The notes: generated by a model not told the origin, from the letters alone. 64,000 nt of DNA from Myxococcota bacterium (GCA_035498015.1 DATKAO010000141.1:5370-69369), one strand, 5' to 3'; positions 1 through 64,000 are shown, numbered from the stretch's first letter. Made by a program: numbers and translations.

Positions 1-599
1 AAGCCCCACAGCGCCTGTTCGAAGCCCGCGGTCGCGATCTCGGCGTCGAACGGCCGGTCGCCGTGCAGCTGCGGCAACAAGTGGCGGGCGCGCACGATCG
101 GGCCCGCCACCAGGTGCACGAACAGCGCGACCGCGGTGGCGAAGCGCAGCAGGCTCGGCTCGGGCTCGATCTCGCCGCGGTACACGTCGAGCACGTAGCT
201 CATGCTCTGGAACGTGTAGAACGAGATTCCGACCGGCAGCAGGATCTGCAGCGTGACTTCGGGCACCTCGAAGCCCAGCCAATGCGCCAGTCCGCGCGCC
301 GAGGCCACCCCGAAGTGGAAGTACTTGAAGAAGGCGAGCAGGGCCAGGTTGGTGGTGAGCGAGACCGCCAGCAGCCGGCGCCGGCGCCGCGGGTCGGGCA
401 TGCGGTACACCGCGCGCCCCACGAAGAAGTCGAGCGCGGTCTGGAACCAGAGCAGGGGCAGGAGCCTCCAGTCCCACCAGGCGTAGAAGAAGTAGCTCGC
501 CAAAAGCGTGAGCCACAGGCGCACGACGCCCCGTGTCGCGAGATAGGCGACGAAGAAGGCGGGGAAGAAGACGAGGAAGGCGAGGCTATTGAACAGCAA
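1..599 (-). CDS. MBOAT-family membrane-bound O-acyltransferase (AlgI/DltB-like), N-terminal part only; the gene continues past the window start
   Basis: Reverse-strand translation from TTG at 599 reads MLLFNSLAFLVFFPAFFVAYL...PVGISFYTFQSMSYVLDVYRGEIEP..., a hydrophobic N-terminus with the FYTFQS-type MBOAT motif. There is no stop before the window edge, which is why it is absent from the ORF track. The listed + strand ORF 63..746 is its Arg/Glu-rich antisense artefact. Confidence 0.6.
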   Translation of the reverse strand, partial: MLFNSLAFLVFFPAFFVAYLATRGVVRLWLTLLASYFFYAWWDWRLLPLLWFQTALDFFVGRAVYRMPDPRRRRRLLAVSLTTNLALLAFFKYFHFGVASARGLAHWLGFEVPEVTLQILLPVGISFYTFQSMSYVLDVYRGEIEPEPSLLRFATAVALFVHLVAGPIVRARHLLPQLHGDRPFDAEIATAGFEQALWG

Positions 600-620
600 T
601 CACGGCCCCGCCTCGCGACC

Positions 621-1091
621 TCAGTTGTCCTGCTTCTTCAGCTTGATCTTGAGCTCGTGTGTGAGGGAGTCCGTGCCCATCACGCCCGTCAAGGTGATCG
701 ACGTGCCCTTGCCGTTGACCGAGCCCGAGAGCGCGAACGCCGGTGAGGTGTTCGCCAGGTTCAAGTGGAAGTTTCCCACGAATCCCGACAGAGCGTTCAC
801 CGTGGTGGTGGTCGACGACGAGGTCGGGAGCGGATCGTCATAGCTGAAGGTCACCGCCAGCGCGTCGTCCTCTGCGCCCTGGGCGATCACCACCGACAGC
901 TTGGTGCTGAATTTCTTCTTGGGCTTGAGCGAGCCCGCGACGGACTGGTCCCAGTACGACGACTTCAGGCTGCCGCGCCAGGTTCCGGCCAGGAACGGCA
1001 CACCCGTGGAGTCGGCGATCGTCAGTGATGGCACGGCCAACACGGAGGCCAGGGTCACGACACCAATCAACAGAGCCGCGATTTTGCGCAC
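621..1091 (-). CDS. hypothetical secreted protein (N-terminal signal peptide)
   Basis: Internal GTG at 1091 is preceded by GGGAGGAAG 7 nt upstream and gives (M)RKIAALLIGVVTLASVLAVPSLTIA.... The upstream part of ORF 621..1334 is Arg/Cys-rich and not protein-like. Confidence 0.5.
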   Translation of the reverse strand: MRKIAALLIGVVTLASVLAVPSLTIADSTGVPFLAGTWRGSLKSSYWDQSVAGSLKPKKKFSTKLSVVIAQGAEDDALAVTFSYDDPLPTSSSTTTTVNALSGFVGNFHLNLANTSPAFALSGSVNGKGTSITLTGVMGTDSLTHELKIKLKKQDN

Positions 1092-1191
1092 AGAGGTCTT
1101 CCTCCCACATTCCCCACAAGATCGCGAGGATAGCCCCGGACTTTCGCGTCGCCAGCATCCGCCAGCGCCACGTGGGATATCCTGCGCGCGG

Positions 1192-1659
1192 ATGCAGCTC
1201 GATCCCAAGGTCGCGTACTGGACCGGTGCGTTCGTGAACATGGTCGCGGCGCTGGCGATCGCTGCATTCGGCGCCAGCCGGATTCGCCGCGCCGAGATCC
1301 CGAGCCACGCGCGCTCGATGAAGATCGCAGTCACCCTGGTGGTGCTCTTCGTGGTGTCCTACGCGGTGAAGCTGCGCGTCTTGGGACGCGAGGCGCTCGA
1401 GCTGTGGGAGCCGCGCTTCGTGCACGTGCTGCGCTTCCACGAGACGTGCATCGCGGTGATGGTGCTGGCCGGCGGCACGGCGCTGTATCTCGCCACGACC
1501 CGGCGCCTGGCCGACACGCCCGCGCCCGAGCGCATGGCCGAGCGCGCCCGGATCGCGCGCATCCACCGTGCCTGCGGCTGGACGGCCCTGGTGGCGTGCG
1601 GTCTGGGCGCGCTGAGCGCGGGCTACGTGCTCTACGGCATGTACGCGCGCCTGTCCTAG
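1192..1659 (+). CDS. DUF420-like small integral membrane protein (4 predicted TM helices)
   Basis: ATG at 1192 inside ORF 901..1659 gives MQLDPKVAYWTGAFVNMVAALAIAAFGA... with four hydrophobic segments. The upstream part of the ORF is not protein-like. The stop shares a CTAG with the convergent gene. Confidence 0.5.
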   Translation: MQLDPKVAYWTGAFVNMVAALAIAAFGASRIRRAEIPSHARSMKIAVTLVVLFVVSYAVKLRVLGREALELWEPRFVHVLRFHETCIAVMVLAGGTALYLATTRRLADTPAPERMAERARIARIHRACGWTALVACGLGALSAGYVLYGMYARLS

Positions 1660-3146: not shown

Positions 3147-3155
3147 GGCGCTCGC

Positions 3156-4328
3156 TCAGCTCTGCGTCTTCGCGCTCTGCTCGGCGGCGTGCTTCTGGAT
3201 TTCCTTCATCACCGCGCCGCCCGCCTCGGCCATGATGCGCGAGCGGTTCTCGATCGCGTAGTTCAGGCTCTTCTCGCGCAGGTCGTTGGTCTGCTGGAAG
3301 CGGGGCATCACGTGGCGCGCGATCAGCTCGTAGCTCTTGTGAGTCGCCTTCTGGTTCGCCCACTCGTGCGCGAGCTGCAGGAAGCAGCCGTAGCCGCCCG
3401 ACTGCTTCTCGAGTCTCTCGAGCTGCGCGATCGCGTCTTCCGGCGTGCCGATCACCGCCATGCCGATCTCGATCAGCCTGTCGATCGCCTGGTCGACGGG
3501 CACGCCCGCGTCGACCAGCGGCAGGGGCGAGATCTCGCGGAAGTAGCGGGCCCAGTTCAACAGGCCGAACTTCACGTCCTCGCGCGCCTGTTCGCGCGTC
3601 TCGGCCACGTGCATGGGCGCGACCAGGCGCCAGCCGCGGCGCGAGACGGTCTTGCCGAACTGCCGCGCGCGCTCCTCGCAGATGCCCCAGGTGTTGGCGA
3701 GCGCGTTGAAGCCGCCGGTGGTCGTGGCGCCGATCGACAAGAGCGACAGGCCGAACTCACCCGCGGCGCGCGCGCCCGCGGGAGACACCTGGTTCGCGAC
3801 CGCGATCTCGACGCCTTCCTCGGCGTAGGAGCGGAGCTGCAGGTGCGCTTCGCGCAGCTCGAACCACTCGGTCTTCATGCTGACCGTCTCGCCGTTGAGC
3901 AGCGGCACGAGCGCGCGCAGTGACTCGAGCATGCGGTCCCGCTGGGTCGAGGGGTCGATACCCATCATGAACGCGTCGGTCGGCAGCGCGCCGGGCCCGA
4001 CGCCGAACATGGTGCGGCCGCGCGTCTGCAGGTCGAGCTGGCGGATGCGGTCGGCCAGGATGAACGGGTGGTGGTAGGGCAGCGAGGCCACGCCCGTGCC
4101 GAGCTTGATGCGCCGCGTGCGCTCGGCGGCCGCGGCGATGAACACCTCGGGCGAGCCGATGATCTCGTAGCCGGCCGAATGGTGCTCGCCGATCCAGGCC
4201 TCGTCGTAGCCGAGCGAGTCCAGGTGCTCGACCAGCTCGAGGTCGCGCGCCAGCGCGAGCGCAGGGTTCTCGTGCTCGGGGTGGAACGGAGCCATGAAGA
4301 TGCCGAAGCGCAGTCGCGATTGAGTCAC
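3156..4328 (-). CDS. LLM-class (luciferase-like) flavin-dependent oxidoreductase
   Basis: (M)TQSRLRFGIFMAPFHPEHE...EAWIGEHH... is a luciferase-like monooxygenase signature. AGGAG lies 7 nt upstream of GTG 4328. The GTG overlaps the TetR stop (GTGA). The ORF-track N-terminal extension to 4733 is Arg-rich. Confidence 0.7.
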   Translation of the reverse strand: MTQSRLRFGIFMAPFHPEHENPALALARDLELVEHLDSLGYDEAWIGEHHSAGYEIIGSPEVFIAAAAERTRRIKLGTGVASLPYHHPFILADRIRQLDLQTRGRTMFGVGPGALPTDAFMMGIDPSTQRDRMLESLRALVPLLNGETVSMKTEWFELREAHLQLRSYAEEGVEIAVANQVSPAGARAAGEFGLSLLSIGATTTGGFNALANTWGICEERARQFGKTVSRRGWRLVAPMHVAETREQAREDVKFGLLNWARYFREISPLPLVDAGVPVDQAIDRLIEIGMAVIGTPEDAIAQLERLEKQSGGYGCFLQLAHEWANQKATHKSYELIARHVMPRFQQTNDLREKSLNYAIENRSRIMAEAGGAVMKEIQKHAAEQSAKTQS

Positions 4329-4939: not shown

Positions 4940-4963
4940 GAGCTGAATCCTATTCCATAACTA

Positions 4964-4973: not shown

Positions 4974-5015
4974 CATTCGTGGTTCATGATGCATCCTCCC
5001 CAGGGAGGAGCCGTC

Positions 5016-6035
5016 ATGCACGCCGCCGTCTTCCACGGCATCGGAAAGCCACTCACGATCGAGGAACGCCCGGACCCCAAGCCCGGACCGGGCGAGCTGG
5101 TGCTGCGGGTGAAGAGCTGCGGGATCTGCGGCTCCGACCTGCACGCCGCTTCGCTTCCGCCGGGGCTCCCGGCCGGCACGGTCATGGGCCACGAGTTCTC
5201 CGGTGAGGTGGTCGAGGTCGGCTCCGAGCTGCGCGGGCTGTGGAAGCCTGGCGACCGCGCGTGCGCGCTGCCCTGCATCGGCTGCGGCAAGTGCCGCGCC
5301 TGCCTCGACGGCGACGTCGTCGCGTGCCCGGCGCTGCGCGCGACCGGTCTGGGTCAGATCCCGGGCGCCTACTCCGAGTACGTGCTCACGGGCGGGCCCG
5401 AGTCACTCAAGCTCCCGGCCGGCGTCTCCTTCCGCGAGGGCGCGCTGGTCGAGCCGCTGGCCGTCGGCCTGCACGCGGTGAACCTGTCGAAGCTCGTGCC
5501 GGGCGAGCGCGTGATGGTGATCGGCGCGGGGCCGATCGGCCTGGCCGTGACCGCCTGGGCGCGCTTCTTCGGCGCGCGCGCCGTGGTGGTGAACGAGAAG
5601 GCGCCCGGGCGGATCGCGCTGGCGGAGCGCTTCGGCGCGACGGCGGTGGCCGACGTCTCGAAGGAGGACCCGGTCAGCGTGTTCCAGCGCGAGACCGGCG
5701 GCCCGCCCGACGTCGTCTTCGAGTGTGTCGGCATCCCCGGTCTCCTGCAGCAGTGCATCGGCATGACGCGCTCGCGCGGGCGCGTGGTGGTGGTGGGGGT
5801 GTGCATGCAGCCCGACATGATCTTCCCGGCGATGGCGGTGATCAAAGAGGTCGAGGTCAAGTTCGTGGTCGCCTACCACCGCCGTGACTTCGAGCTCGCG
5901 ATCGAGATGCTCGATCGCGGGCGCATCGTGGCGCACGACATGATCACCGACGTGGTCGGCCTCGACGCGTTCCCCAGCGCCTTCGAGGCGCTGAAGATGC
6001 CCACCCACCAGTGCAAGGTGATCCTCGAGCCATGA
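5016..6035 (+). CDS. zinc-dependent alcohol dehydrogenase (MDR family)
   Basis: GHEFSGEVVEVG catalytic-zinc motif, structural-zinc cysteines (CIGCGKCRAC), GAGPIGL NAD(P) Rossmann motif. GGAGGA lies 6 nt upstream of ATG 5016. Confidence 0.8.
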   Translation: MHAAVFHGIGKPLTIEERPDPKPGPGELVLRVKSCGICGSDLHAASLPPGLPAGTVMGHEFSGEVVEVGSELRGLWKPGDRACALPCIGCGKCRACLDGDVVACPALRATGLGQIPGAYSEYVLTGGPESLKLPAGVSFREGALVEPLAVGLHAVNLSKLVPGERVMVIGAGPIGLAVTAWARFFGARAVVVNEKAPGRIALAERFGATAVADVSKEDPVSVFQRETGGPPDVVFECVGIPGLLQQCIGMTRSRGRVVVVGVCMQPDMIFPAMAVIKEVEVKFVVAYHRRDFELAIEMLDRGRIVAHDMITDVVGLDAFPSAFEALKMPTHQCKVILEP

Positions 6036-6970
6036 CCGACTTCCCGCAGCCGCGCTTCGTGCGCGCCAACGGCGTCCGCCTCGCGGTCTACGAGCAGGGC
6101 CGCGGCTTCCCCGTGGTGTTATCGCACGGCTTCCCGGAGCTCGCGTACTCGTGGCGCCACCAGCTGCCGGCGCTCGCCGCCGCCGGCTTCCGCGCGATCG
6201 CGCTCGACCAGCGCGGCTACGGCGCGAGTGACTCGCCGGAGGCGGTCGAGGCCTACGACATCGCGCAGCTCACCGGCGACCTCGCCGGGCTGCTCGACGC
6301 ACTCGACCTCGAGCGCGCGGTGTTCTGCGGCCACGACTGGGGCGGTATGGTGATCTGGACCATGGGCCAGCTGCACCCCTTGCGCGTCGCGGGGCTGATC
6401 GGCGTGAACACGCCCTTCCTGCCGCGGCCGCCGGTCCCGCCCCTGCAGATGCTCGAGCAGACCATGGGCCCCGACCACTACATCGTGCAATTCCAGAAGC
6501 GCGGCGACGCCGACGCGCGGCTCGCGAAGGACGTGCGCCGTGTGTTCGACGTGCTCATGCGCTGCGGCATCAAGCTCGGCGACCTGGATCTCACCGGCGG
6601 CATCCGCAACCTCGCGGCCGTGGTGGAAGAGGGCGTGGTGCGCGGCCGCCCGCTGCTCACGGACGCCGAGCGCGACGTGTTCGTGCGCGCGTTCGAGCGC
6701 ACGGGCTTCAGCGGCGGAATCAACTGGTACCGCAACATCGACCGCAACTGGCGACTCACCGAGCACGCGCCGCAGACACTCGACTGCCCCGCGCTCATGG
6801 TCACGGCCGAGGACGACTTCGCGCTCCCGCCGGCGCTCGCCGAGGGCATGGAAGCGCGCGTGCCCAGGGTCGAGAAGGTGATGATCCGCGACTGCGGTCA
6901 CTGGACGCAGCAGGAGCACCCCGCCGAGCTCAACCGGATCCTCGTCGACTGGCTGCGCCGGACTTACTGA
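6032..6970 (+). CDS. alpha/beta hydrolase, epoxide-hydrolase-like
   Basis: HGFPELAYSWRHQ (HGxP oxyanion region) and GHDWGG nucleophile elbow. ATG 6032 overlaps the ADH stop (ATGA). Confidence 0.75.
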   Translation: MTDFPQPRFVRANGVRLAVYEQGRGFPVVLSHGFPELAYSWRHQLPALAAAGFRAIALDQRGYGASDSPEAVEAYDIAQLTGDLAGLLDALDLERAVFCGHDWGGMVIWTMGQLHPLRVAGLIGVNTPFLPRPPVPPLQMLEQTMGPDHYIVQFQKRGDADARLAKDVRRVFDVLMRCGIKLGDLDLTGGIRNLAAVVEEGVVRGRPLLTDAERDVFVRAFERTGFSGGINWYRNIDRNWRLTEHAPQTLDCPALMVTAEDDFALPPALAEGMEARVPRVEKVMIRDCGHWTQQEHPAELNRILVDWLRRTY

Positions 6971-8805: not shown

Positions 8806-10302
8806 GTGGCCTGGCGCGCGTGGGGTTCGATCGCCGTCGCGGCGGCGCTGTGCGCCGCGCCCGCGCGCGCGAACGGGCCGATCGGCGACGCGCCGGTCTT
8901 CGCGCGCATCGAGGCGCTGCGTCCGGTCGCGGCGGCGCTCAGCGTCGACGGCGACGGCTCGGACTGGGGCGCGATCCCCAACTTCACCGACCCCGCCGGC
9001 GACGCGGGCGGCGACCCGTCGCGCGACATCGTGGGCTTCGCGATCGCGCCGCTCGCCGACTCACTGGTGGTGCGCATCCAGACGGCCGGGCCGCCTTCGA
9101 GCTACGACCTGTCGTTCTGGCTCGACATCGACTTCATGGGCCAGGAGCCGCTCGATCTCGAGATCGGCCTGTATGCCGGCTTCCCCGACATTCTGTGGAC
9201 CTACCCCGAAGGGGGTACGCCGTTCTTCCAGACCTTCAATGATTCGCAGCTCGCGATCGGCAACGTGGTCGAGGCGCGCATTCCCTACGCGGTGATCGCG
9301 CCGCTCCTGCCCGCCGACATGGCGGCGGCGCTCACCGGGCCGAACGCCCGCAGCTGGGTGCGAGTCACTCCGTTCACGATGGACTACTCGCAGGCCTCGG
9401 TGCCGCGCGTGGACACCGGACCCGCGGTGGCGTCGTTCCGGCTCGTGCCCACGCCCTACGCGCTCGACCCGCCGCTGCCTGCGCCCGGTACGCCCGTGCC
9501 GGTGCCGCCCGCGCTCGCCGACCAGATCTACGTGGGGCAGGGGGCGTTCGGCCTGGGGAGTCACGCCGGCTACTGGGCGTACGACCTGAACCAGGTCGAC
9601 GCGTTGCTCCACCCCGACGCGAACTCGCCGAGCCCCAACCTCGCCGACTACTACAGCTTCGGGAAGCCCGTGTACGCGCCGCTCGCCGGCGTCGTGACTT
9701 CGCTCGACAGCCACAATCCCGACCTGCCGCCGCGCAGCGCGGCCACGGGCAACCCCAACTTCGTGACGCTCGACATCGGCGGCGGCAACTCGCTGTTCTT
9801 CGATCACCTGAAGCAGGACAGCATCACCGTCGGGCTGAATCAGTCGGTCGCGGCGGGACAGCAGATCGGCAACGTGGGTCACTCGGGCTCGAACACCTGG
9901 CCGCACCTGCACCTGGGCGGCGTGCTCACGGCCGACAACTCACAGAGCTATCCGCTGGCGCACACCGAGGTCGAGGTCGGGTTGAACCCCACGCCCTCCG
10001 ACCCGTGGCTGCGCTGGCTCCCGGTCTGGGCGCTGCGCGAGGGCATGTTCGAGAAGCCGGCGGGCGCGCTGTGCGGCGACGTCCTGGTCGACCAGGTGCT
10101 GAACGCGGGCGACGTGTCCGCGCTGCGCGCGCGCCTCGCCAACCCGACCGGCGCCCCGCTCTCGGCCGACGGCGAGCACCGCTGCACCGTGATCGGCGCT
10201 CCGCACGCCTGCGGCGTCATCGACGCCACCATCGTGCGCCGCAAGCTCGCGACGCTCGCCCCCGGCATCTCCCAAGTCTGCCCCGCTGCACTGGGCACCT
10301 GA
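8806..10302 (+). CDS. secreted M23-family (lysostaphin-type) metallopeptidase-like protein
   Basis: GTG start after AGGA. Signal peptide (M)AWRAWGSIAVAAALCAAPARA. C-terminal GNVGHSGSNTWPHLHLG (HxH) and upstream H...D motif. Divergent from dedA, 37 bp apart. Confidence 0.6.
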   Translation: MAWRAWGSIAVAAALCAAPARANGPIGDAPVFARIEALRPVAAALSVDGDGSDWGAIPNFTDPAGDAGGDPSRDIVGFAIAPLADSLVVRIQTAGPPSSYDLSFWLDIDFMGQEPLDLEIGLYAGFPDILWTYPEGGTPFFQTFNDSQLAIGNVVEARIPYAVIAPLLPADMAAALTGPNARSWVRVTPFTMDYSQASVPRVDTGPAVASFRLVPTPYALDPPLPAPGTPVPVPPALADQIYVGQGAFGLGSHAGYWAYDLNQVDALLHPDANSPSPNLADYYSFGKPVYAPLAGVVTSLDSHNPDLPPRSAATGNPNFVTLDIGGGNSLFFDHLKQDSITVGLNQSVAAGQQIGNVGHSGSNTWPHLHLGGVLTADNSQSYPLAHTEVEVGLNPTPSDPWLRWLPVWALREGMFEKPAGALCGDVLVDQVLNAGDVSALRARLANPTGAPLSADGEHRCTVIGAPHACGVIDATIVRRKLATLAPGISQVCPAALGT

Positions 10303-13979: not shown

Positions 13980-15662
13980 ATGCTGCGCGGCCCCGGCCGG
14001 AGACACGGATTGCGCAAGCTCGGGCTTCTCCTCGCGCTGGGACTCCTGCCGCTCGCGGGGCTGGGCGCTACGGGCCTGCTCGACTACGACGAGGCGGCCT
14101 ACGGAGACATCGCGCGCGCGATGCTGGCCCGCGGCGACTGGCTCGTGCCGGTGATGTGCGGCGAGCCGTGGTTCGAGAAGCCGCCGCTCTTGTACTGGAC
14201 TTCGGCGCTGGGCATGAAGCTCGTCGGGATCGGCCCCGCGGGCGCGCGGCTGGGGACGCTTTTGGCCGGCGCCGCCGCGCCCATGGCGCTGTTCGCGCTC
14301 TCGCGCCGGCCCCTGGGCGAGCGTGCGGCGTTCGCGGCGGCGGTCGCGCTCGCGAGCGCGCTCGAGTTCGCGGTGCTGGCGCGCGTCGCGCTCACCGACA
14401 TGCTGCTGCTCCTGTGGCTCACCGTGTGTGTCGGCGCGCTGCACCATGCCTTCGAGGACCGCGCCCGAGACACACGCTGGTTCGCGCTGGCGTGTCTGGC
14501 CTGCGCGCTCGCGGTGCTGACCAAGGGACCGATCGGGCTCGCGCTGCCGGCGGCGGCGGGGCTCTTGGAGCTGCTCCTGCGCCGACGGCCGGGCGCGCTG
14601 CTGCGGCCGAGCTGGCTCCTGCTCGGCGTGGCGATCGTGGGCGGTCTCGGCGGCTCGTGGTATCTCGCGCTCGGGGCCGCCCACGGCTTCGGCTTCCTGC
14701 GCTCGCTCTTCGTCGAGCACAACGTGGGGCGCTTCGCCGAGCCCATGCAGGGCCACGGCGGTCCCCTCTGGTACTACGTGCCGGTGCTCCTGGGCGCGCT
14801 CTTCCCCTGGGCGCCGCTCCTGCCGCTGGCGGCGGCGCGCGCCGGCCTGGGCGCCGGCGACGAGCGCGCGAGACACTTGCGCCTGTTCGCGCTCTTTTCC
14901 GCGCTCGTGTTCGCGTTCTTCAGCCTCGCCGGTACGAAGCTGCCGAGCTACGTGGCGCCGGTGCTGCCGGGCTGCGCGCTCCTGGTCGGCGCGCTGGTGG
15001 CCCGGCCGAGTGACTCCGCCCGCGACCGCGCGTTCGCTGTCTCGCTCTGGGCGGTGTTCGCGCTGATGGCGCTGGTCTCGGTGGCGGTGACCCTGCTGCC
15101 GCTCGCGGCGCGCTTTCCGCCCTCGATGCTGTCGGACAAGACGGCGCTCCACCCCGGTCTAGACCAGCGGCTCGATCCGGGCCCGATGTGCGCGGCCGCG
15201 GGCTTCGCGCTGGCCGCCGGGGCGATCGCCGCGGCGCTGTGGTGGCAGGAGCGGCGCGAACGCGCCTGGCTCGCGCTGTGCGGCGGCGCGCTGGCCGGCT
15301 ACACGCTGCTCTCGGCCTTCGTGCTGCCGCGCGTCGACGCGCAGGTGAACGCGCCGCTGCGCCGGCTCGCCGCGCGCGCCGGAGCGCTCACCGGTCCCGA
15401 CGAGCGGCTGCTCGTGCTGGGCCTGCGCCACGCCGCGAGCATCTGCTTCTACTCCGGCCGGCCCACCGAGTACGTGAGTGACTCGGGCGGGAAATACTCC
15501 GAGGCCGTGGTGTTCGGCGAACAGCACCCGCGCATCGGCATCAGCGGCGGGCCGCAGCTCTCGCGCTTCGAGCACAGCGAACGGCTCGAGCTGCTCGAGC
15601 GCGACGGCGGCTACGTGCTGTTCCGGATCCCGGACACGAGCTCGGGCGTGCCGCCGCCCTGA
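13980..15662 (+). CDS. GT39-family glycosyltransferase (ArnT/PMT-like, polytopic membrane protein)
   Basis: GLLDYDEAAYGDIARAMLARGDWLVPVMCGEPWFEKPPLLYW plus many TM helices. Divergent from dus, 33 bp apart. Confidence 0.7.
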   Translation: MLRGPGRRHGLRKLGLLLALGLLPLAGLGATGLLDYDEAAYGDIARAMLARGDWLVPVMCGEPWFEKPPLLYWTSALGMKLVGIGPAGARLGTLLAGAAAPMALFALSRRPLGERAAFAAAVALASALEFAVLARVALTDMLLLLWLTVCVGALHHAFEDRARDTRWFALACLACALAVLTKGPIGLALPAAAGLLELLLRRRPGALLRPSWLLLGVAIVGGLGGSWYLALGAAHGFGFLRSLFVEHNVGRFAEPMQGHGGPLWYYVPVLLGALFPWAPLLPLAAARAGLGAGDERARHLRLFALFSALVFAFFSLAGTKLPSYVAPVLPGCALLVGALVARPSDSARDRAFAVSLWAVFALMALVSVAVTLLPLAARFPPSMLSDKTALHPGLDQRLDPGPMCAAAGFALAAGAIAAALWWQERRERAWLALCGGALAGYTLLSAFVLPRVDAQVNAPLRRLAARAGALTGPDERLLVLGLRHAASICFYSGRPTEYVSDSGGKYSEAVVFGEQHPRIGISGGPQLSRFEHSERLELLERDGGYVLFRIPDTSSGVPPP

Positions 15663-23635: not shown

Positions 23636-25066
23636 GTGAGGTCCAATCGCCTCAAGTGTCTCGCGGCGACGACGTGCGTGGCCGCGCTGATATCGAGTCA
23701 CTCGGGCCGGGCCGGCGCCGACGAGGCAGCCGACCTGCGCCAGCTCAAGGCAGAGATCGCCGCGGAGCGGCAGGCACTCTCCGACGAGCGCGCCGCGCTC
23801 GCGGAGCAGCGCAAGCGCATCGACCAGGCGCTGATCAGTCTCGAGGACCAGAAGGCAGGCGTCGAGAAGGTGAGCTACGGCGCCGGAGCAGTGCTGCCCG
23901 CCGTGGGCGCGGCCCAGCCGGCGCCCGGCAAGCCCAGCGCTTATCTCGACGTGTACGGCTTCCTGCAGCTCGACGGGATCTACGACTTCAACCGGGTGGA
24001 CCCGGCCTGGAACGCCACGCTGCGGCCTTCCAAGATCCCCGTGATCTGCCCGCAAGATCCGGGCTGCGGTCAGGACGGCGAGACGATCCTGAGCGTGCGC
24101 CAGTCACGGCTCGGCTTCAACGGCTTCATCCCGACCGCGGCGGGCGACATCAAGACCAAGTTCGAGTTCGACCTGTACGGCGTGGGCGTCGACGCGGGCA
24201 ACACCACCATGCGCGTGCGCCACATGTGGGGCGAGCTGGGCGAGTGGGGCGCGGGCCAGACCAACAGTCTGTTCATGGACGGCGATCTCTTCCCGAACAC
24301 GATCGACTACTGGGGGCCGCCGGGCATGGTGTTCCTGCGCAACCCGCAGATCCGCTGGACGCCGATCTCCGACGAGAACTGGAAGCTCGCCGTCGCCCTC
24401 GAAGCGCCGGGCGCCGGCATCGACTCCGGCAAGGCCGGGCTCGTCGACCCGGCGCTCACGGCCACGCCGTGGAACAAGTATCCCGATCTCACCGGCATGG
24501 TGCGCTACAACGACCGCTGGGGTCACTTGCAGCTCTCCGCGCTGCTGCGCTCGATCGGCATCGAGGGCACGCTCGGTACCGGGGACCAGTTCCACCGCCG
24601 CGTCGTCGGGTGGGGCCTGGACGTCGGCAACGTATTCGAGATGGGCTCGCTCGTCGAGTCACTGACCGGAGACCAGCTCATCTCGGGCGTGGTCTACGGC
24701 TATGGCATCGCGAACTACATGAACGACGGGGGCACCGACGTGGCGCCGGACGCCGGCCTGAGCGTGACCGCGGTGCCCACGCTGGGCTGGCTCCTGTACT
24801 ACAACCGCACCTGGGACGAGCACTGGACGAGCTCGCTCGGCTACAGCGCCCATCGGCAGTTCAACGTCGGGGGACAGCACTCGACGGCCATGAAGCAGAT
24901 CGACTACATGAGCATCAACGTGCTCTGGCACCCGGTGCCGCAGGTGTTCATCGGTCCGGAGATCCTCTGGGGCAAACGCAAGAACGAAGACAGCAACGAC
25001 AAGTCGGATACCCGCGTCCAGGTGTCCTTCCACTACAACTTCGATGGCCGCATCGGCGGTCGCTGA
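23636..25066 (+). CDS. outer-membrane porin-like protein with N-terminal coiled coil (DcaP-like)
   Basis: GGGGAGGG lies 6 nt upstream of GTG. Signal peptide VRSNRLKCLAATTCVAALISSHSGRAGA. Then a coiled coil (LRQLKAEIAAERQALSDERAALAEQRKRID), then an aromatic-rich beta-strand region ending ...SFHYNF. Confidence 0.5.
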   Translation: MRSNRLKCLAATTCVAALISSHSGRAGADEAADLRQLKAEIAAERQALSDERAALAEQRKRIDQALISLEDQKAGVEKVSYGAGAVLPAVGAAQPAPGKPSAYLDVYGFLQLDGIYDFNRVDPAWNATLRPSKIPVICPQDPGCGQDGETILSVRQSRLGFNGFIPTAAGDIKTKFEFDLYGVGVDAGNTTMRVRHMWGELGEWGAGQTNSLFMDGDLFPNTIDYWGPPGMVFLRNPQIRWTPISDENWKLAVALEAPGAGIDSGKAGLVDPALTATPWNKYPDLTGMVRYNDRWGHLQLSALLRSIGIEGTLGTGDQFHRRVVGWGLDVGNVFEMGSLVESLTGDQLISGVVYGYGIANYMNDGGTDVAPDAGLSVTAVPTLGWLLYYNRTWDEHWTSSLGYSAHRQFNVGGQHSTAMKQIDYMSINVLWHPVPQVFIGPEILWGKRKNEDSNDKSDTRVQVSFHYNFDGRIGGR

Positions 25067-35796: not shown

Positions 35797-38691
<2,895 letters not shown>

Positions 38692-45379: not shown

Positions 45380-46401
45380 CGGATCCTTTCTGCGAGGAAG
45401 CGCACGAACGCGGGGTGGGCGTTCGCGCAGGGCACGAGCTCGAGCGCCTCGCCGCCCGCCGCCTGCCACTGCGCGCGGCCGCGCACGCCGATCTCCTCGA
45501 GCGTCTCGAGACAGTCGGCCGCGAACGAGGGGCACAGCACGGCCAGGCGCTTCACGCCCGCGCGCGCGAGCTCGGGCAGACGCACGTCGGTGTGGGGCTG
45601 GATCCAGGGCTCCCGGCCGAGCCGCGACTGGAAGGCGAACGAGTGACTCCCCGGCGCGAGCCCGAGCGCGTTCACCAGCGCGCGCGTGGTCGCGACGCAC
45701 TGCGCGCGGTAGCAGCGCGCATTGGCGAAGCCGATCGCGTTGCAGCAGTCGGCGGAGCGCAGACAGTGTGTCCCGCTGCGGTCGCCGGCGCGCATGTGGC
45801 GCTCGGGCAGGCCGTGGTAGGAGAACAGCACGTGGTCGGGGCGGAAGGCCGCGAGCCGCGGGCGCGCGATCTCGGCCAGCGCGCCGATGAAGCCCGCTGC
45901 GTCGTAGAACTCGCCCAGCGCCTCGAGCGGCGGCACGTTGTTCTGCGCGCCCGCGAGCTCGAACAGCTTGGCGAGCCCCGAGCCCAGCGACGACGACGCG
46001 TACTGCGGAAACAGCGGCACGGCGACGATGCGCGCCGCGCCGGCCGCGATCAGCGACCCCAGCGCGTTCCCGAGCGACGGCTGGCCGTAGCGCATGCCGA
46101 GCCGCACCGAGTGACTCGGGCCGAGCTCGGCTTCGAGCGCCGCGGCGAGCGCCTCGCCGTGCACGAGCTGCGGGGAGCCTTCGGGTCCCCAGATCTTGCG
46201 GTAGAGCTCCGCGGAGCGCGGCGCGCGGAACGGCGCGATCACCAGGTTCACCAGCGGCCAGCGCAGGACGGCCGGCATGTCGAGCACGCGCGGGTCCATG
46301 AGAAACTCGCGCAGATAGGCGCGCACGTGGGCTGGCCGCGCCGAGCGCGGCGTGCCCAGGTTGAGCAGCAGCACGCCGGTCTTCTCGCCCGTCCGGGTCA
46401 C
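45376..46401 (-). CDS. hemH: ferrochelatase
   Basis: (M)TRTGEKTGVLLLNLGTPRS...PLFPQYASSS...FSYHGLP are ferrochelatase family motifs. GTG start (GCGTGACCCGG). Confidence 0.8.
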   Translation of the reverse strand: MTRTGEKTGVLLLNLGTPRSARPAHVRAYLREFLMDPRVLDMPAVLRWPLVNLVIAPFRAPRSAELYRKIWGPEGSPQLVHGEALAAALEAELGPSHSVRLGMRYGQPSLGNALGSLIAAGAARIVAVPLFPQYASSSLGSGLAKLFELAGAQNNVPPLEALGEFYDAAGFIGALAEIARPRLAAFRPDHVLFSYHGLPERHMRAGDRSGTHCLRSADCCNAIGFANARCYRAQCVATTRALVNALGLAPGSHSFAFQSRLGREPWIQPHTDVRLPELARAGVKRLAVLCPSFAADCLETLEEIGVRGRAQWQAAGGEALELVPCANAHPAFVRFLAERIR

Positions 46402-51285: not shown

Positions 51286-51288
51286 CCA

Positions 51289-54802: not shown

Positions 54803-56202
54803 GCCGAGCCGCCCGCGTCTGGCTGACCGCGCTCCTCGCGGCGACGGCAGCCTGCGCCGTCCCTGCGCCCGTGCTCGAGACGGCCCAGGACGACGCCCAG
54901 GCCGGCGCCGAGGCGAGCCGGCAGGTCGAAGCCATGATCGGGTTCGTGCAGGACCCGAGGCTGCGCCAGTACCTGCAGTCACTCGGCGAGAAGCTGGTGC
55001 GCTTCGCGCCCGCGCAGCCGTTCGAGTACCGGTTCCAGGTCGTCGACCAGTGGAGCCCGAACGCCTTCGCGCTCCCCGGGGGACAGATCTTCGTGTCGCG
55101 CGGCCTGCTCGCGCTGACCAACTCGGAGGACGAGCTCGCGTGCGTGCTGGGGCACGAGATCACCCACGCGGCCGAGCGCCACGCCGCGAGTCAGCAGGCG
55201 TTCAGCCAGCAGCTGAGTCCCTTCTCGCTGGCGCTGCCGCGCCAGGCGATCGTGGCGAAGTACGCGCGCGATCAGGAGCGCGCGGCCGACACGGGCGGGC
55301 AGCGCATCTGCTCCGCGGCAGGATACGATCCGCGCGCGCTGTCCAGCTTCCTCGAGTCACTCGGCGGGATCGACCGGCTGCAGATGGGCGTCTCACGCAT
55401 TCCGACCTTTCTCGACAGTCACCCGGGCACCCCCGAGCGCATCGCCACCACGGCGGCCTTCGCTTCGACCCTGCCCCCGCCCGGGCCGCGCGATCCGGTG
55501 CGGGCGCGCGAGGCCTATCTGGCCCGCCTGGAAGGGCTCTTGCTCGGGGCCGACCCCAGCGAAGGCGTGATCCTGGGCTCGCGCTTCGTGCATCCCGACC
55601 TGGGCTTCTCGGTCACCTTCCCGGAGGGCTGGCGGGTGGTGAACACGGCCAGCGCGGTGGTCGCGCGCTCGCCGCGCCGCGACGCCCGCTTCGCGCTCGA
55701 GCCGGCCGGCCCGGGCAGCGACCCGCGGGCCGTGGCCGAGCCCTACCTCGCCCAGCGCGTGCAGGAGTGGCGCGCGGTGCTCGATTTCCAGGGCGCGGAG
55801 GCGACGCCCTGCTGCGCGGCGTACGTGGTGCGCGGGTCGGTCGAGTCGACGCAGGGAGTGATTGCGGGCCAGCTGGCGTGGGTCGTGCTCGCCGGCCGCG
55901 TGTATCGCCTGTCCGCCGCTTTCGTGCCCACGGCTTCCGAGAAGTACGCCGAGCGCGCGCGTCAGATGGTGCAGAGCTTCCGGCCACTCACCGACGAGGA
56001 GCGCGCCGGGATCCGAGTCAACCGCCTGCACCTGGCCCGAGCCCGCGCCGGCGAGAGCTTGGCTTCGTTCTCGGCGCGCACGGGCAACGTCTACGACGCG
56101 CAGCCGACGGCGCTCGCCAACGGGCTCGCGCCCGGCACGAGGCTGTCGGCGGGTCAGCTGCTGAAGATCGGCGTGCAGAAGACCTACGAGCCGCAGAAGT
56201 GA
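54799..56202 (+). CDS. M48-family metallopeptidase with signal peptide and C-terminal LysM-like segment, probably initiating at CTG
   Basis: HEITHAAERH zinc motif. An in-frame signal peptide (L/M)SRAARVWLTALLAATAACAVPAPV precedes the first canonical start. CTG 54799 overlaps the DUF455 stop (CTGA). The track's ATG 54556 extension is Arg-rich and overlaps DUF455 by 247 nt. Confidence 0.55.
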   Translation: MSRAARVWLTALLAATAACAVPAPVLETAQDDAQAGAEASRQVEAMIGFVQDPRLRQYLQSLGEKLVRFAPAQPFEYRFQVVDQWSPNAFALPGGQIFVSRGLLALTNSEDELACVLGHEITHAAERHAASQQAFSQQLSPFSLALPRQAIVAKYARDQERAADTGGQRICSAAGYDPRALSSFLESLGGIDRLQMGVSRIPTFLDSHPGTPERIATTAAFASTLPPPGPRDPVRAREAYLARLEGLLLGADPSEGVILGSRFVHPDLGFSVTFPEGWRVVNTASAVVARSPRRDARFALEPAGPGSDPRAVAEPYLAQRVQEWRAVLDFQGAEATPCCAAYVVRGSVESTQGVIAGQLAWVVLAGRVYRLSAAFVPTASEKYAERARQMVQSFRPLTDEERAGIRVNRLHLARARAGESLASFSARTGNVYDAQPTALANGLAPGTRLSAGQLLKIGVQKTYEPQK

Positions 56203-59691: not shown

Positions 59692-59727
59692 CGCGGCATT
59701 CTCTCACGACCGAATGGAGGTAAGGCC

Positions 59728-61056
59728 TTGGCCCGCAAGCTCTCGCATCTGGCAGCGCTCATCCTGTGCGTCGTGGCCGGCACCGCGCGCGCCGAGGTGC
59801 AGGTCGGCGACACGATCACGGCCGCGAACAAGGAGAAGGTGCGCGGCCTCGTGCCCGACGAGTTCTACACCTACGCGATCGAGGACTTCCCCGACCTCTC
59901 GATGAAGATCGTCGCCACCCAGGACTACCCGGTGCACCCGAAGTATGTCGAAGCGACCGTGCAGTTCGCGTGTCAGGCGACGCTCGACGAGAAGGGCACG
60001 CTCAAGAACTACAGCGCGGGTCAGCCGTTCCCGTACTCGGAGTGGGCGAAGCAGGCCACCCATCACCGGTGCGACCTCACGCCCGACGACCCGCAGTTCG
60101 CGCTCAAGCTGGCCTGGGACGTGAACTACCGCTGGCAGGGCGGCTCGGGCTTCAACCTGCCGCACTGGGGCTTCGCGAACCTGCGCAACAAGGGGCGCGA
60201 GCAGTGGCGGCTCTCGCAGGGCGAGTACCGCCGCACCTACTTCAGCGCGCGCGCCGACCTCCTGCCCGAGACGACCGAGCTCGAGAAGGGCACCAACGTG
60301 GAGTGGGCCGAGTATTTCGACGTGAAGTCACCCTTCGACCTGCGCGGCACGATGTTCCTGCTCTACCGCTACCGCGACGGCAAGGACGACGACACCTGGG
60401 CGTACATCCCGGCGCTGCGCCGCGTGCGCCGCATCGCGGCCACGCAGAAGAGTGACTCGCTGCTCGGCACCGAGTTCACGCTCGAGGACTTCTACTGCTT
60501 CTCGGGCTACGTCTGGGACCACTCGTGGGAGTTCAAGGGCGAGAGCACGCTCTTGTCCGTCCCCGACAGCGCGCGCACCTGCTTCCCGAAGGCCTCGGGC
60601 GCGATCTCGGCCAGGCAGATGGTGCGGCTCGGCACCGACGAGGAGTGGCGCGCCTGCCGCTTCGACCCGTACGGGGTCATGCCCATGGTGGGTGAGTCGT
60701 GGCAGAAGCGGGCGTCGTTCGAGCTCGACGACATCCCCAAGCAGGAAGGCCACCCCTACAGCCGCAAGAAGATCTGGTACGACAAAGAGACCATGTCGCC
60801 CGGCCTGGCCGTGGCCTACGACCGCGCCGGCAAGGTCTACAAGCTGATCGGCGGCGTCGGCCGCTGGAGCGAGAGCTCGGGCATCCCCGAGAACAAGGGC
60901 CGGCAGGTGCTGCTCGGCACCTCGGTCATGATCGTCAACGTGCAGAGCGGCAACTCGAACCTGGGTCAGTTCGACGGCATGAACGCCATGGAGTTCGACA
61001 TCACCGAGAGCCGCAAGTACTACGACACGACCAAGCTGAAGACCACGGGGCGCTAG
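59728..61056 (+). CDS. DUF1329-family secreted protein (LolA-like outer-membrane lipoprotein-sorting fold)
   Basis: GGAGG lies 7 nt upstream of TTG 59728. Signal (M)ARKLSHLAALILCVVAGTARA. DUF1329-like sequence throughout. The ORF-track extension back to 58318 is antisense to the sulfatase gene. Confidence 0.55.
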   Translation: MARKLSHLAALILCVVAGTARAEVQVGDTITAANKEKVRGLVPDEFYTYAIEDFPDLSMKIVATQDYPVHPKYVEATVQFACQATLDEKGTLKNYSAGQPFPYSEWAKQATHHRCDLTPDDPQFALKLAWDVNYRWQGGSGFNLPHWGFANLRNKGREQWRLSQGEYRRTYFSARADLLPETTELEKGTNVEWAEYFDVKSPFDLRGTMFLLYRYRDGKDDDTWAYIPALRRVRRIAATQKSDSLLGTEFTLEDFYCFSGYVWDHSWEFKGESTLLSVPDSARTCFPKASGAISARQMVRLGTDEEWRACRFDPYGVMPMVGESWQKRASFELDDIPKQEGHPYSRKKIWYDKETMSPGLAVAYDRAGKVYKLIGGVGRWSESSGIPENKGRQVLLGTSVMIVNVQSGNSNLGQFDGMNAMEFDITESRKYYDTTKLKTTGR

Positions 61057-61898
61057 CGCTCGCCGTACTTCTTCCAGCTCTCGGGCCGCGCCTCGAGGCC
61101 GCGCACCAGGAGTGACTGCGAGGAGTGGCCGATCGGGCCGCGTTCGTCGAGCAGCCGCGCGTGTGCGGTGCCCGAGCCGTTGTCGACGTAGGTCGCGCGC
61201 GCGTCGAGGCAGATCCACTCGCCCAGCGCGGGGCGGTGCAGGTTCAGCGTAGTATCGGGGTTGATCGCCACGAACGGGCGGGCGGCCATCCCCTTCATGT
61301 CGCGGCTCGCCATGCGCATGAGCGGCACCGAGTAGGTCATGTCGGAGACGAAGGCCACGCGCACCAGCGGCGAGTTGGCCTCGCCCGCGACCAGCGGCAC
61401 GCGCAGTCGCAGCCAGGCGGTCGGTGACTCGAAGCCGGGCACGGGCCGCATCTCGAGCACGCGCTGCAGCGGGTTCTCGGCGTCGCCGCGCGAGTCACTC
61501 CAGGGGAAGCGCATGGCCGTCGCGGGCAGGGCGGGCGGGCGCTCGGGCGAGAGCTCCTCGGGCACCCGCACGGTCGCGACGCGGAAACGCAGGGCGCTGG
61601 CGCGCGCGAACACCTCGCCGCCCGCGCACAGCTCCGCCTCGAGCACGTCGACCGACCCGCCGCTGCGCACCACCCGCGCCCGCGTCTCCACGCGCGCCAA
61701 CGGCGCCGCGCGCATCAGGTCGACGGTGAGCCGGGTGATCTGTGACTCGCGCTCCGCGGGCACGCGCTCCACGGCGCGCGCCAGAAGGCCCAACATGGGG
61801 CTCCCGTGCTGGGTGTTCGGATACCACGGCCCGCGCGCGAGCTCCGTGGGCACGAAGCCGTCGCCGTCGGGCGCGAACACGAACTCGGGGGCCGGCAC
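61053..61898 (-). CDS. thioesterase-like (hotdog-fold, TesB-like) protein
   Basis: GTG start. Family assignment by general resemblance only. Confidence 0.4.
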   Translation of the reverse strand: MPAPEFVFAPDGDGFVPTELARGPWYPNTQHGSPMLGLLARAVERVPAERESQITRLTVDLMRAAPLARVETRARVVRSGGSVDVLEAELCAGGEVFARASALRFRVATVRVPEELSPERPPALPATAMRFPWSDSRGDAENPLQRVLEMRPVPGFESPTAWLRLRVPLVAGEANSPLVRVAFVSDMTYSVPLMRMASRDMKGMAARPFVAINPDTTLNLHRPALGEWICLDARATYVDNGSGTAHARLLDERGPIGHSSQSLLVRGLEARPESWKKYGER

Positions 61899-61937
61899 GG
61901 CGCGCAGCCTAGCACGCGCGCGGGGTATGCTCTGGCC

Positions 61938-62651
61938 ATGGAGATCCGAACCGAGCAGGCCCAGGTGAAGACGCCCGACGGCTCACTGCCCGTCTACCTC
62001 GCGGAGCCCACCGCGCCCGGCCGCTATCCCGCGGTGCTCGTGATCCAGGAGATCTTCGGCGTGAACGGCCACATCGCCGACGTCACGCGCCGCATTGCCG
62101 CCGAGGGCTACGTCGCGCTCGCGCCCGATCTCTTCTACCGCGACGCCAAGGGGGTCGTGATTCCCTACGACCAGATCCCCAAGGCGATCGAGTACGCCAT
62201 GCGCCTGAAGGAAGAGGGGCTGGTCGCCGACCTGCGCGCGTCGCTCGACTTCCTGGCCGCGCGGCCCCAGGTGTCGGGTGCGAAGGCGGGAATCACCGGC
62301 TTCTGCATGGGCGGGCGCATCGCGTTCCTGGCCGCGTGCGCGCTGCCCGACCGGATCGCCGCCGCGGCGCCGTTCTACGGCGGCGGCACCGTGCAGCTCC
62401 TGCCCCGGGCCGAGTCGATCCGCGCGCCCATGCAGTTCTTCTTCGGCGCGCTCGACGCGCACATCCCGCAGAACCAGGTGAAGGCCATCGACGCGCGTCT
62501 TGCGGAGCTCGGGAAGGACTACAAGATCGAGGTGTATCCCGGCGCCGATCATGGCTTCTTCTGCAACGACCGCGCGAGCTACAACGAGAAGGCGGCGTCC
62601 GACGCCTGGACCACGCTGAAGGCGTTCTTCGCCAAGCACCTGGGTAAGTGA
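61938..62651 (+). CDS. dienelactone hydrolase family protein
   Basis: MEIRTEQAQVKTPDGSLPVYLAEP...VIQEIFGVNGHI...GFCMGG nucleophile elbow...DHGF. Confidence 0.7.
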   Translation: MEIRTEQAQVKTPDGSLPVYLAEPTAPGRYPAVLVIQEIFGVNGHIADVTRRIAAEGYVALAPDLFYRDAKGVVIPYDQIPKAIEYAMRLKEEGLVADLRASLDFLAARPQVSGAKAGITGFCMGGRIAFLAACALPDRIAAAAPFYGGGTVQLLPRAESIRAPMQFFFGALDAHIPQNQVKAIDARLAELGKDYKIEVYPGADHGFFCNDRASYNEKAASDAWTTLKAFFAKHLGK

Positions 62652-63079
62652 CCCGGCGGGCGCTGCTCGCGTTCGTTCCAGCACTGACCGGGTGCCTGCC
62701 GCTCCCGATCCCGCACCGCGTCGCGGTGCAGCCGGGGTTGACCGGGAGGATCGTCGACGAGCACCGGGTGCCGATCTCCGGAGCGGACATCGAGCTTCGG
62801 GCCGGGGACGCGCTCTACTCGGCACAGAGCGGCCAGGACGGACGCTTTCGCATCGACCCCGTGGTCGAGTGGCGCTACGTCGTGTGGCTCCCGCTCGTCC
62901 CGATAGACTATTTTCACGGGTGCAGCCCCGCGGAGGTGAGCGTGAAACGGGGCGACCGCATCTTCTGCGGGATCGCTCCGAAGATCTGTGGTGTCGTGCC
63001 GGATGAGTCTCCCGCATGGGCGGGGGAGCATCTCGGAGAGCTCGGAGACATTCCTCTCTGCCCTGCGAAGGAGTCCTGA
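62648..63079 (+). CDS. lipoprotein (carboxypeptidase-regulatory-like beta-sandwich?)
   Basis: GTG overlaps the upstream stop (GTGA). Lipobox MTRRALLAFVPALTGC. Confidence 0.5.
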   Translation: MTRRALLAFVPALTGCLPLPIPHRVAVQPGLTGRIVDEHRVPISGADIELRAGDALYSAQSGQDGRFRIDPVVEWRYVVWLPLVPIDYFHGCSPAEVSVKRGDRIFCGIAPKICGVVPDESPAWAGEHLGELGDIPLCPAKES

Positions 63080-64000
63080 TGTCCCGTCCATTCCCGAGTG
63101 ACCCGTATCTCGAGGGCAACTTCGCGCCGCTGTCCTTCGAGGCCGACGCGAACGATCTGGTGGTCTACGGCGAGATTCCTCGCTGTCTCGAAGGCACGCT
63201 GTACCGAAACGGCGCCAACCCGCAATTCGCGCCGCGCGGGCGCTACCACTGGTTCTCGGGCGACGGCATGATCCACGGCTTCTTCTTCGAGAACGGCCGG
63301 GTCTCGTACAAGAATCGCTGGGTGCGCACCGAGCGCTGGAAGGCGGAGCGCGCCGCGGGCGAGGCGCTGTTCGGCGGAATCACCGACCCGGGCAACAACG
63401 ACCCGCGCGTCGAGGGCATCTCGGGCAACACCGCGAACACCAACATCGTGTGGCACGCCGGCCGGCTTCTGGCGCTGTGGGAGGCGGGCTTGCCGACCGA
63501 GCTCGACCCCGTGACGCTCGAGACGCGCGGCACCTGGGACTTCGCGGGACGGCTGACTCGCCGCAATCATCCCAGCGGCATCATGACCGCGCACCCGAAG
63601 TTCGACCCGCGCACGGGCGAGATGCTGATGTTCGGCTACAGCCCGGTCGAGCCGTATCTCGTCTACAACGTGGTCGACAGCAAAGGGAAGCTCGTGAAGA
63701 GCGTCGAGCTCGACGTGCCCTGGCCGAGCATGATGCACGACTTCATCACTACGGCCGAACACGTGGTCTTCCCGGTGTTTCCGGTCGTGTTCGACCTGGC
63801 GGCGATGGCCAACGGGGGCAACGTCATGTCGTGGCAGCCCGAGCGCGGGACGATGCTCGGAGTCATGCCGCGCAACGGCGAGGCCAAGGACCTGCGCTGG
63901 TTCCAGACCGACCCGTGCTACGTGTTCCATCCGATGAACGCGCACACGGAGGGCTCGCGCGTGATCGCCGAGGTCGCGCGCTTCCCGGTGCTGCCGCTGT
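63079..64000 (+). CDS. carotenoid oxygenase (RPE65/CCD family), 5' part only; the gene continues beyond the window end
   Basis: AAGGAG lies 7 nt upstream of ATG 63079, which overlaps the upstream stop (TGATG). Translation MSRPFPSDPYLEGNFAPLSFEADANDLVVYGEIPRCLEGTLYRNGANPQFAPRGRYHWFSGDGMIHGFF...HPMNAH... has no stop before the window edge. It is absent from the ORF track for that reason. Confidence 0.7.
   Translation, partial: MSRPFPSDPYLEGNFAPLSFEADANDLVVYGEIPRCLEGTLYRNGANPQFAPRGRYHWFSGDGMIHGFFFENGRVSYKNRWVRTERWKAERAAGEALFGGITDPGNNDPRVEGISGNTANTNIVWHAGRLLALWEAGLPTELDPVTLETRGTWDFAGRLTRRNHPSGIMTAHPKFDPRTGEMLMFGYSPVEPYLVYNVVDSKGKLVKSVELDVPWPSMMHDFITTAEHVVFPVFPVVFDLAAMANGGNVMSWQPERGTMLGVMPRNGEAKDLRWFQTDPCYVFHPMNAHTEGSRVIAEVARFPVLPL

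Follow-up and report, generated by a model that had tools for sequence, protein, structure and literature searches.

GAGTSACTC, a hyper-abundant palindromic word in the genes of an uncultured soil Myxococcota lineage

Why does one short palindrome recur so often inside the genes of a high-GC bacterium, and what might read it? The question is raised by 64,000 bases of DNA from a Myxococcota bacterium (GCA_035498015.1, DATKAO010000141.1:5370-69369), here called the window, with 71.1% GC, a flat composition and no GC skew. The element in question is the word GAGTSACTC (S being C or G), with its heptamers GAGTCAC and GTGACTC and its longer form CGAGTSACTCG. A sequence-only reading of the window had counted by eye about 50 heptamers (24 in one orientation, 29 in the other), about 15 nine-mers and at least six eleven-mers. 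This tally was not inflated: by computer count the window holds 56 heptamers (24 GAGTCAC and 32 GTGACTC), 38 copies of AGTSACT (594 per Mb), 15 of GAGTSACTC (234 per Mb) and 7 of CGAGTSACTCG. As shown in the following, the word has been written into one small clade by convergent substitutions, in any frame and on either strand, and partly at the expense of the protein sequence.

Markov models of orders 0-3 expect 6-11 heptamers, 2.3-3.3 AGTSACT, 0.3-0.7 nine-mers and 0.04-0.19 eleven-mers for the window. A model of order 5 expects 57.5 heptamers and matches the observed 56. This agreement is circular and no refutation, because the source hexamers already hold the signal (AGTCAC 94 vs 24 at order 3); 9.8 nine-mers and 2.9 eleven-mers are expected even by this model, vs 15 and 7 observed. 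For a codon-aware null, 57 genes were called by a codon-usage model (the calls are approximate and agree with those of public assemblies where these exist), and synonymous codons were shuffled within each gene in 300 shuffles. The expectation was 9.5 ± 2.2 heptamers, with a maximum of 17, so the excess claimed from the sequence is not reproduced by a codon-aware background. For AGTSACT, nine-mers and eleven-mers 5.3, 0.68 and 0.25 copies were expected, and the z scores are 14-22 across word lengths. The shuffle is conservative, because the rare codons contributed by the motif itself are retained.

Real DNA was used as a further background. The window together with a sister genome, L004 (SMAG_U15181), amounting to 85 kb, was compared with 456 kb from high-GC relatives. 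AGTCACT was found 47 times vs 1.2 expected, GAGTCAC 66 times vs 2.9 and AGTCACTC 28 times vs 0.3. Altogether the enrichment is 6- to 28-fold over the codon-aware null and 20- to 90-fold over the relatives. Chance and composition are ruled out by Markov orders 0-4, by the synonymous codon shuffle and by the relatives as background.

Exact-protein look-ups located sequence with 99.4-99.9% identity to the window in ENA assembly ERZ27256607 and in JGI metagenome 3300033004; with two other genes these look-ups gave no match. An assembly artefact is ruled out, since the motif sites recur in both assemblies. Remnants of sequencing adapters (TruSeq ...CTCCAGTCAC) are likewise ruled out by this recurrence and by the count of zero Illumina adapter strings. 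Between the window and L001/L002, 46 strain-level differences were found, none of which touches a motif site. Past the window, two ENA contigs add 4.9 kb and 7.9 kb of sequence. These 12.8 kb of flanks contain 29 more motif 7-mers and 5 nine-mers, and the enrichment therefore spans at least 77 kb.

The 15 nine-mers start at positions 5400, 6226, 9362, 15008, 15476, 21003, 23695, 36268, 37378, 42159, 45641, 46109, 55354, 60450 and 61492. Most coordinates given by the sequence-only reading were right; two eleven-mers placed at 23695 and 42168 start at 23694 and 42158, and the eleven-mer at 37377 and the nine-mer at 15008 had been missed. In the following list, L003 (SMAG_U15179) is a second relative; it and L004 are both syntenic with the window at 15.3-38.6 kb. 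The seven eleven-mers come first.

6225..6235, 11-mer CGAGTGACTCG, within an alpha/beta-hydrolase gene (6032-6970, + strand)
23694..23704, 11-mer CGAGTCACTCG, within a DcaP-like porin gene
36267..36277, perfect 11-mer, within a SNF2 helicase gene (35797-38691, - strand); orthologous sequence GAGCGATTC in L004 and GAGGGACTC in L003
37377..37387, perfect 11-mer, within the same SNF2 helicase gene; orthologous sequence CAGTGACTC in L004 and GAGCGCTTC in L003
42158..42168, perfect 11-mer, close to the 3' end of a DUF3516 DEAD-box helicase gene (39641-42181, + strand)
46108..46118, perfect 11-mer, within a ferrochelatase gene (45376-46401, - strand)
55353..55363, perfect 11-mer, within an M48 peptidase gene (54871-56202, + strand)
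5400..5408, 9-mer GAGTCACTC, within a Zn-dependent alcohol dehydrogenase gene
9362..9370, 9-mer GAGTCACTC, within an M23 peptidase gene
15008..15016, 9-mer GAGTGACTC, within a PMT-type glycosyltransferase gene (14010-15662, + strand)
15476..15484, 9-mer GAGTGACTC, within the same glycosyltransferase gene; orthologous sequence GAGCGAGGC in L004
21003..21011, 9-mer GAGTCACTC, within an acyl-CoA dehydrogenase gene; orthologous sequence GCGTGACGC in L004 and GCGTGACCG in L003
45641..45649, 9-mer GAGTGACTC, within the ferrochelatase gene
60450..60458, 9-mer GAGTGACTC, within a DUF1329 gene (59728-61056, + strand)
61492..61500, 9-mer GAGTCACTC, within a 4HBT thioesterase gene (61053-61898, - strand)
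1..64000, imperfect copies with intact GTSAC core, 34 sites agreeing at 8 of 9 positions and 54 at 7 of 9

What is the unit that is enriched? Alignment of the 38 AGTSACT copies on the central base gave the consensus c-G-A-G-T-S-A-C-T-C-g, with conservation ending at ±5. The enrichment is about 5-fold for GAGTCAC and for GAGTGAC alike, and about one third of the GAGTSAC copies run on into TC, completing the palindrome. The centre is C in 24 and G in 25 of the 49 best sites. Centres with A or T are nearly missing: AGTAACT and AGTTACT occur once each vs 38 S-centred copies, and no otherwise perfect nine-mer in the window has such a centre. The word is therefore a true palindrome and not an oriented heptamer. 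The sequence-only reading had taken the strand balance as an argument against a Chi-like signal, and this argument holds. Chi, KOPS and other strand-skewed architecture octamers (AIMS) are also short over-represented words within genes, but they are asymmetric and co-oriented with replication, whereas the window word is symmetric in its heptamers (24 + vs 32 -) and in its centre.

Imperfect copies are enriched unevenly. Nine-mers with one mismatch number 51 vs 16.7 expected, and the enrichment is 6.4-fold for mismatches at positions 1/9, 5.1-fold at 3/7 (mostly G to C), 2.7-fold at 2/8 and 1.3-fold at 4/6, the last being no enrichment. Deviations are tolerated at the outer positions 1/9 and at 3/7, but not at 4/6 or at the centre. 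Therefore (A)GTSAC(T) is the indispensable core. With this GTSAC core, 103 sites match at least 7 of 9 positions, perfect ones included, vs 36 expected. The earlier suggestion that GTSAC (Tsp45I-type) or GANTC (CcrM-type) sites might be the target does not apply to these as units: outside the extended motif, GTSAC (85 vs 94 expected) and GASTC (119 vs 115) are not enriched in the window. The enriched unit has at least 7 bp, (G)AGTSACT(C).

Words one step from the motif, common to the window and L004, were also found in excess over the relatives: GACTCAC (32 vs 4.7), GAGACAC (27 vs 2.4), GAGAGAC (13 vs 3.0) and AGTGAGTC (16 vs 1.2). Pooled GAGWNAC is about 10-fold up and GAGSNAC lies at about 0.7-fold. 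This enrichment of related words suggests graded recognition of the half-sites GAGT, GAGA and GACT. Examples in the window start at the following positions.

18839, 25322 and 38423, GACTCAC
13185, 14467 and 43824, GAGACAC
18940, 44925 and 47167, GAGAGAC

Where does the word stand with respect to genes? Genes contain 96 of the 103 sites; the other 7 are intergenic, a share in keeping with the approximately 8% of non-coding DNA. Every combination of frame and strand is used except the one that places TGA in frame, and a peptide or codon effect is rejected on the grounds that all frames and both strands occur. Sites are present in every 8-kb bin of the window, with a density of about one per kb when near-copies are included. 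They are spaced a little more evenly than random placement would give (coefficient of variation 0.72 vs 0.97, P about 0.01, for a few dozen sites). The trinucleotides ACT and AGT exceed those of the relatives by about 200-270 per 100 kb. By rough estimate this corresponds to the motif copies' own contribution, and a general codon shift is not apparent.

Only eight of the 103 sites are found no more than 12 nt from either end of a gene. They are explained by the GTG and TGA within the word, and an association with gene starts or stops is rejected. The gene-start examples of the sequence-only reading are correct as such: in independent assembly gene calls GTGACTC opens the genes 1656-3146 (- strand) and 26086-27390 (+ strand), and the P450 ribosome-binding site reads GGAGGAGTGACATG. 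According to the calls of two public assemblies, the motif's GTGA at 26086-26089 joins the glutaminase stop TGA with the overlapping GTG start of the downstream porin gene. At 4325-4328 the stop of a TetR gene falls within GTGACTC.

Is the word shared with related genomes? Counts of shared differences gave the tree ((window, L004), L003), L005. A comparison of motif density among relatives, proposed earlier as a check, showed that the enrichment follows this phylogeny: strong in the window and L004, weak in L003, and absent from L005 and further out. GTGACT and GTCACT together reach 239 per 100 kb in the window, 158 in L004 and 33 in L003, vs 11 in four other high-GC relatives (L005, L006, L008, L019) and 10 in Caulobacter. 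As a negative control, 415 kb of unrelated high-GC metagenomic loci contained zero nine-mers and only 7 AGTSACT; these loci came from a metagenome scan with the SNF2 protein and carry distant homologues, none above 73% identity. Among sister genomes with about 80-84% nucleotide identity, the enrichment extends from strong to nearly nil. At the 21-kb locus of L003, AGTCA occurs at 43 per 100 kb vs 12-14 in the outgroups, and AGTSAC has 7 copies vs about 2.4 estimated from the outgroup rate. This weak excess could mark the beginning of the process behind the window motif, or what is left of it after decay.

How did the copies arise? At the orthologous positions of L003 and L004 ordinary sequence is found, 1-3 substitutions away from the motif and never with an indel (for example GAGTCACTC vs GCGTGACGC, and TAGTCACTG vs TAATCGCTG). 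Motif copies therefore arise through point substitution, synonymous and non-synonymous, and not through insertion. In comparison with L003, codons under the motif carry 0.40 synonymous differences vs 0.21 in the background and 0.34 non-synonymous differences vs 0.21. The earlier claim that the word is maintained at the DNA level rather than through the protein is supported by the codon-aware null, by the use of all frames and both strands, and by this convergence at synonymous and non-synonymous positions. Once polarised, the changes turn out to be of several kinds (C>T, C>A, C>G, A>G, A>T), which rejects a single mutational signature.

Mobile mini-elements were rejected as a source. Repetitive extragenic palindromes (REP), miniature inverted-repeat transposable elements (MITE) and the NTS/dRS3 hairpins, which are targets of Ssn nucleases, are palindromic DNA in many copies as well. 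However, they are intergenic hairpins of 20-40 bp that spread as units (PMC11893778). The window word has 9-11 bp without conservation past ±5 bp, lies in genes at 93% of its sites and was made in place, with no indels between orthologues. Hairpin targets of the Ssn/NTS type were rejected for their size and location.

The near-cognate NCGTCAC is depleted 4-fold (20 vs 84 expected), and NAGTCAC has risen from 7.5 to 113. This looks like the conversion of near-cognate sites. The shorter CGTCA/TGACG is also about 3-fold depleted (81 vs 124-287 per 100 kb in the relatives), and GACGTC is halved. The same figures could be read without any reader of the word, if mutation that depends on sequence context, avoidance of CGTCAC/TGACG and similar words, or codon-pair preferences particular to the lineage produced it as a by-product. 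The fall of CGTCAC while AGTCAC rises agrees with such a by-product, as do other odd biases of this lineage (TAT-CTC for Tyr-Leu, GCGCGC at 2.2-fold, GTAC at 0.71). But the gain of AGTCAC (about 105) exceeds the loss of CGTCAC (about 64), GTCACT rises without loss of GTCACG, and GTSAC in total has nearly doubled. Moreover, several mutation types converge on one symmetric nine-mer, completion of the palindrome is far above the expectation for independent half-words, and codon-pair effects cannot account for a motif independent of frame and strand. We consider an origin without a reader very improbable.

Are the individual sites kept? In the comparison of the sister genomes, 35 motif 7-mers were counted in the window and 28 in L004, and 10 are shared. 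Therefore both lineages kept gaining private copies after their split, and most motif sites may post-date it. In a second explanation, the word would be bound by an abundant dimer with helix-turn-helix, for example TetR-like as SlmA, that is associated with the nucleoid or organises the chromosome, and selection would act on density and spacing. A palindromic site, graded enrichment of the half-sites and slightly regular spacing agree with it. However, the known sites of such proteins (SlmA, MatP, Noc, ParB) occur in tens per genome, the SlmA-binding sites numbering tens in all along the E. coli chromosome, whereas the motif would reach thousands. Also, an excess conservation of the sites is missing, and the absence of the word from a close relative that is about 80% identical in nucleotides is hard to explain. 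The E. coli SlmA-binding sequence GTGAGTACTCAC is itself a chromosomal palindromic protein site with the same inner GAGT/ACTC arms (PMC3020112). It differs in lacking the extra central base between the arms, in its flanks and in its far lower density, and its binding protein is a TetR-family member from Gammaproteobacteria. The likeness is no more than a lead, and a nucleoid protein seems to us rather improbable as the reader.

A third explanation is a classical DNA uptake sequence. A competence protein, either a minor pilin or another DNA receptor, would bind the word unmethylated, and uptake and recombination of conspecific DNA would act as molecular drive. The density of about one per kb with imperfect copies, equal orientations, location in genes in all frames, fairly even spacing, substitution origin and lineage-specific distribution all match this model. 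The same pattern has been described in Pasteurellaceae and Neisseriaceae, whose uptake signal sequences (USS) and DNA uptake sequences (DUS), respectively, are words of about 9-11 bp, present roughly once per kb in both orientations and in coding DNA of all frames, gained by point mutation and accompanied by enriched imperfect copies (PMC2817400, PMC1939737). In contrast to the window word, those sequences are oriented and non-palindromic, their perfect cores outnumber one-off copies (here 15 vs 51), they are often paired as terminators, and they are family-wide. The window word is palindromic, mostly imperfect and confined to a small clade. It shows no excess at intergenic or terminator positions, and no competence genes were found in the region examined. 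We regard a classical uptake sequence as unlikely.

Which reader, then, is to be preferred? With a little less than even confidence we favour a lineage-specific tag at the DNA level of the kind of the highly iterated palindrome HIP1, which a methyltransferase would read and biased repair or recombination would spread. The symmetry of the site points to a dimeric reader; a dimeric sequence-specific protein would recognise GAGT-S-ACTC. Most probably this would be a Type-II-like DNA methyltransferase, presumably an orphan, perhaps together with a second protein that recognises the site once it is modified. Alleles carrying the word would be favoured in repair or recombination, so that copies accumulate and near-cognate sequences are gradually converted into the word. 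The drive could lie in methyl-directed or other biased mismatch correction, or in preferential uptake and recombination of tagged DNA. The methyltransferase tag is favoured because the strict inner core and the tolerant outer positions parallel HIP1, and because methylated HIP1 reportedly aids transformation. In HIP1, deviations of one nucleotide are biased outward and leave the methyltransferase core intact (PMC4390886). According to recent studies, methylated HIP1 sites raise the transformation efficiency of cyanobacteria (bioRxiv 10.1101/2024.09.10.611283; 10.64898/2026.06.24.733823).

Several results weigh against the methyltransferase tag. Among the genes of the 77 kb examined, no DNA methyltransferase, restriction enzyme, nickase or competence gene was found. 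The 15 perfect copies are outnumbered by 51 one-off copies, and the graded family of related words is more easily reconciled with a DNA-binding protein of graded affinity than with the strict site of a methyltransferase. Conservation of motif sites between the window and L004 is 10/35 = 0.29, in a small sample, vs 0.34 for any 7-mer, so there is no excess that would speak for selection on individual sites. The data comprise about 77 kb of the source genome and 21 kb of the sister genome L004, and "genome-wide" is an extrapolation from these.

How far does the likeness to HIP1 reach? HIP1 (GCGATCGC) and the other HIPs of cyanobacteria are also short, perfect, hyper-abundant palindromes inside genes (all frames) and between them. 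They are made by substitution, their imperfect copies are enriched with deviations away from the inner core, and the words differ by lineage (PMC4390886, PMC5861425). The AGTSACT density of about 590 per Mb lies within the HIP range of 300-2700 per Mb. HIPs are at least about 15-fold enriched with hundreds of copies per Mb, and the window word falls within these bounds. However, the window word comes from Myxococcota, has an odd length with a degenerate central S, and is rich in A/T for a genome of 71% GC. Its perfect form is weaker, about 22-37-fold by model and 234 per Mb, at the low end of the HIP range. The sites of HIP1 show more conservation than the background (PMC5861425; Xu et al. 2018), whereas no excess conservation was detected here, and the distribution of the window word is very narrow and apparently recent. 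It is conceivable, if somewhat doubtful, that a genome tag resembling HIP1 or the uptake sequences arose independently, and recently in evolutionary terms, in soil Myxococcota. The word is of a known kind, a substitution-made hyper-abundant palindrome in all frames, and differs from the known cases in phylum, sequence, strength, the lack of detected site conservation and its very recent, narrow distribution. A literature search for the word found nothing relevant, and a survey of abundant oligonucleotides mentioned neither myxobacteria nor palindromes.

The window genes are ordinary chromosomal ones, among them those for a dihydrouridine synthase, ferrochelatase, an Mla lipid-transport operon, an endonuclease-III-like glycosylase, glutaminase, the SNF2, DinG-like and DUF3516 helicases, a P-type ATPase, a P450 and a Ser/Thr kinase. 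The sole RNA gene found in the window is a tRNA-Glu (anticodon TTC) at 51211-51288 on the + strand. The nearest genomes are metagenome-assembled genomes (MAGs) of uncultured soil Myxococcota.

Further unusual words were observed in the window. GAGATAC/GTATCTC occurs 18 times vs 3.8 in the codon shuffle, and 28 times vs 3.9 in the comparison with the relatives; examples start at the following positions.

15809, 17029, 21280, 21352, 22572, 27882 and 31688, + strand, GAGATAC
1485, 14660, 46908 and 63654, - strand, GAGATAC

Nearly all copies lie antisense in one frame, where they encode Tyr-Leu as TAT-CTC, and CTC follows 28 of 66 TAT codons. At these sites the L003 orthologues mostly have CAGGTA, which is TAC-CTG on the sense strand. 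The TAT-CTC bias is common to L004 and not present in L003, and TACCT is depleted in parallel; GAGATAC may be another word specific to this lineage. Runs of alternating G and C are about 2.2-fold commoner in the window and L004 than the related high-GC genomes would predict (GCGCGC 1264 vs 567 expected). The palindromic 8-mer GCTCGAGC was found 74 times vs 25 in the codon shuffle, mostly as in-frame CTC-GAG on either strand. GTAC is under-represented by the same shuffle (118 vs 166, 0.71), and TTAA is found 0 times vs 2.8.

Few non-coding signals in bacterial genomes are as strong as HIP1, DUS and USS. The origin of these words is debated, and for HIP1 the function too. Each of them is clade-wide, so that a comparison of genomes with and without the word cannot reveal the machinery. 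The window word, in contrast, is caught during expansion, with two sisters gaining private copies, a trace in the next relative and none in the one after. Since some sister genomes are rich and others poor in the motif, the MAGs and metagenome reads already available allow tests of which gene is responsible and in which direction the drive acts. The word is so specific that it could be used as a binning marker for contigs and mobile elements of this clade. The window word also means that HIP-like palindromes occur outside the cyanobacteria. If the proposed reading is true, a gene-content comparison of a few MAGs could identify the writer or reader of the tag and reveal how words of such abundance originate, a question to which three decades of work on HIP1 have brought no settled answer.

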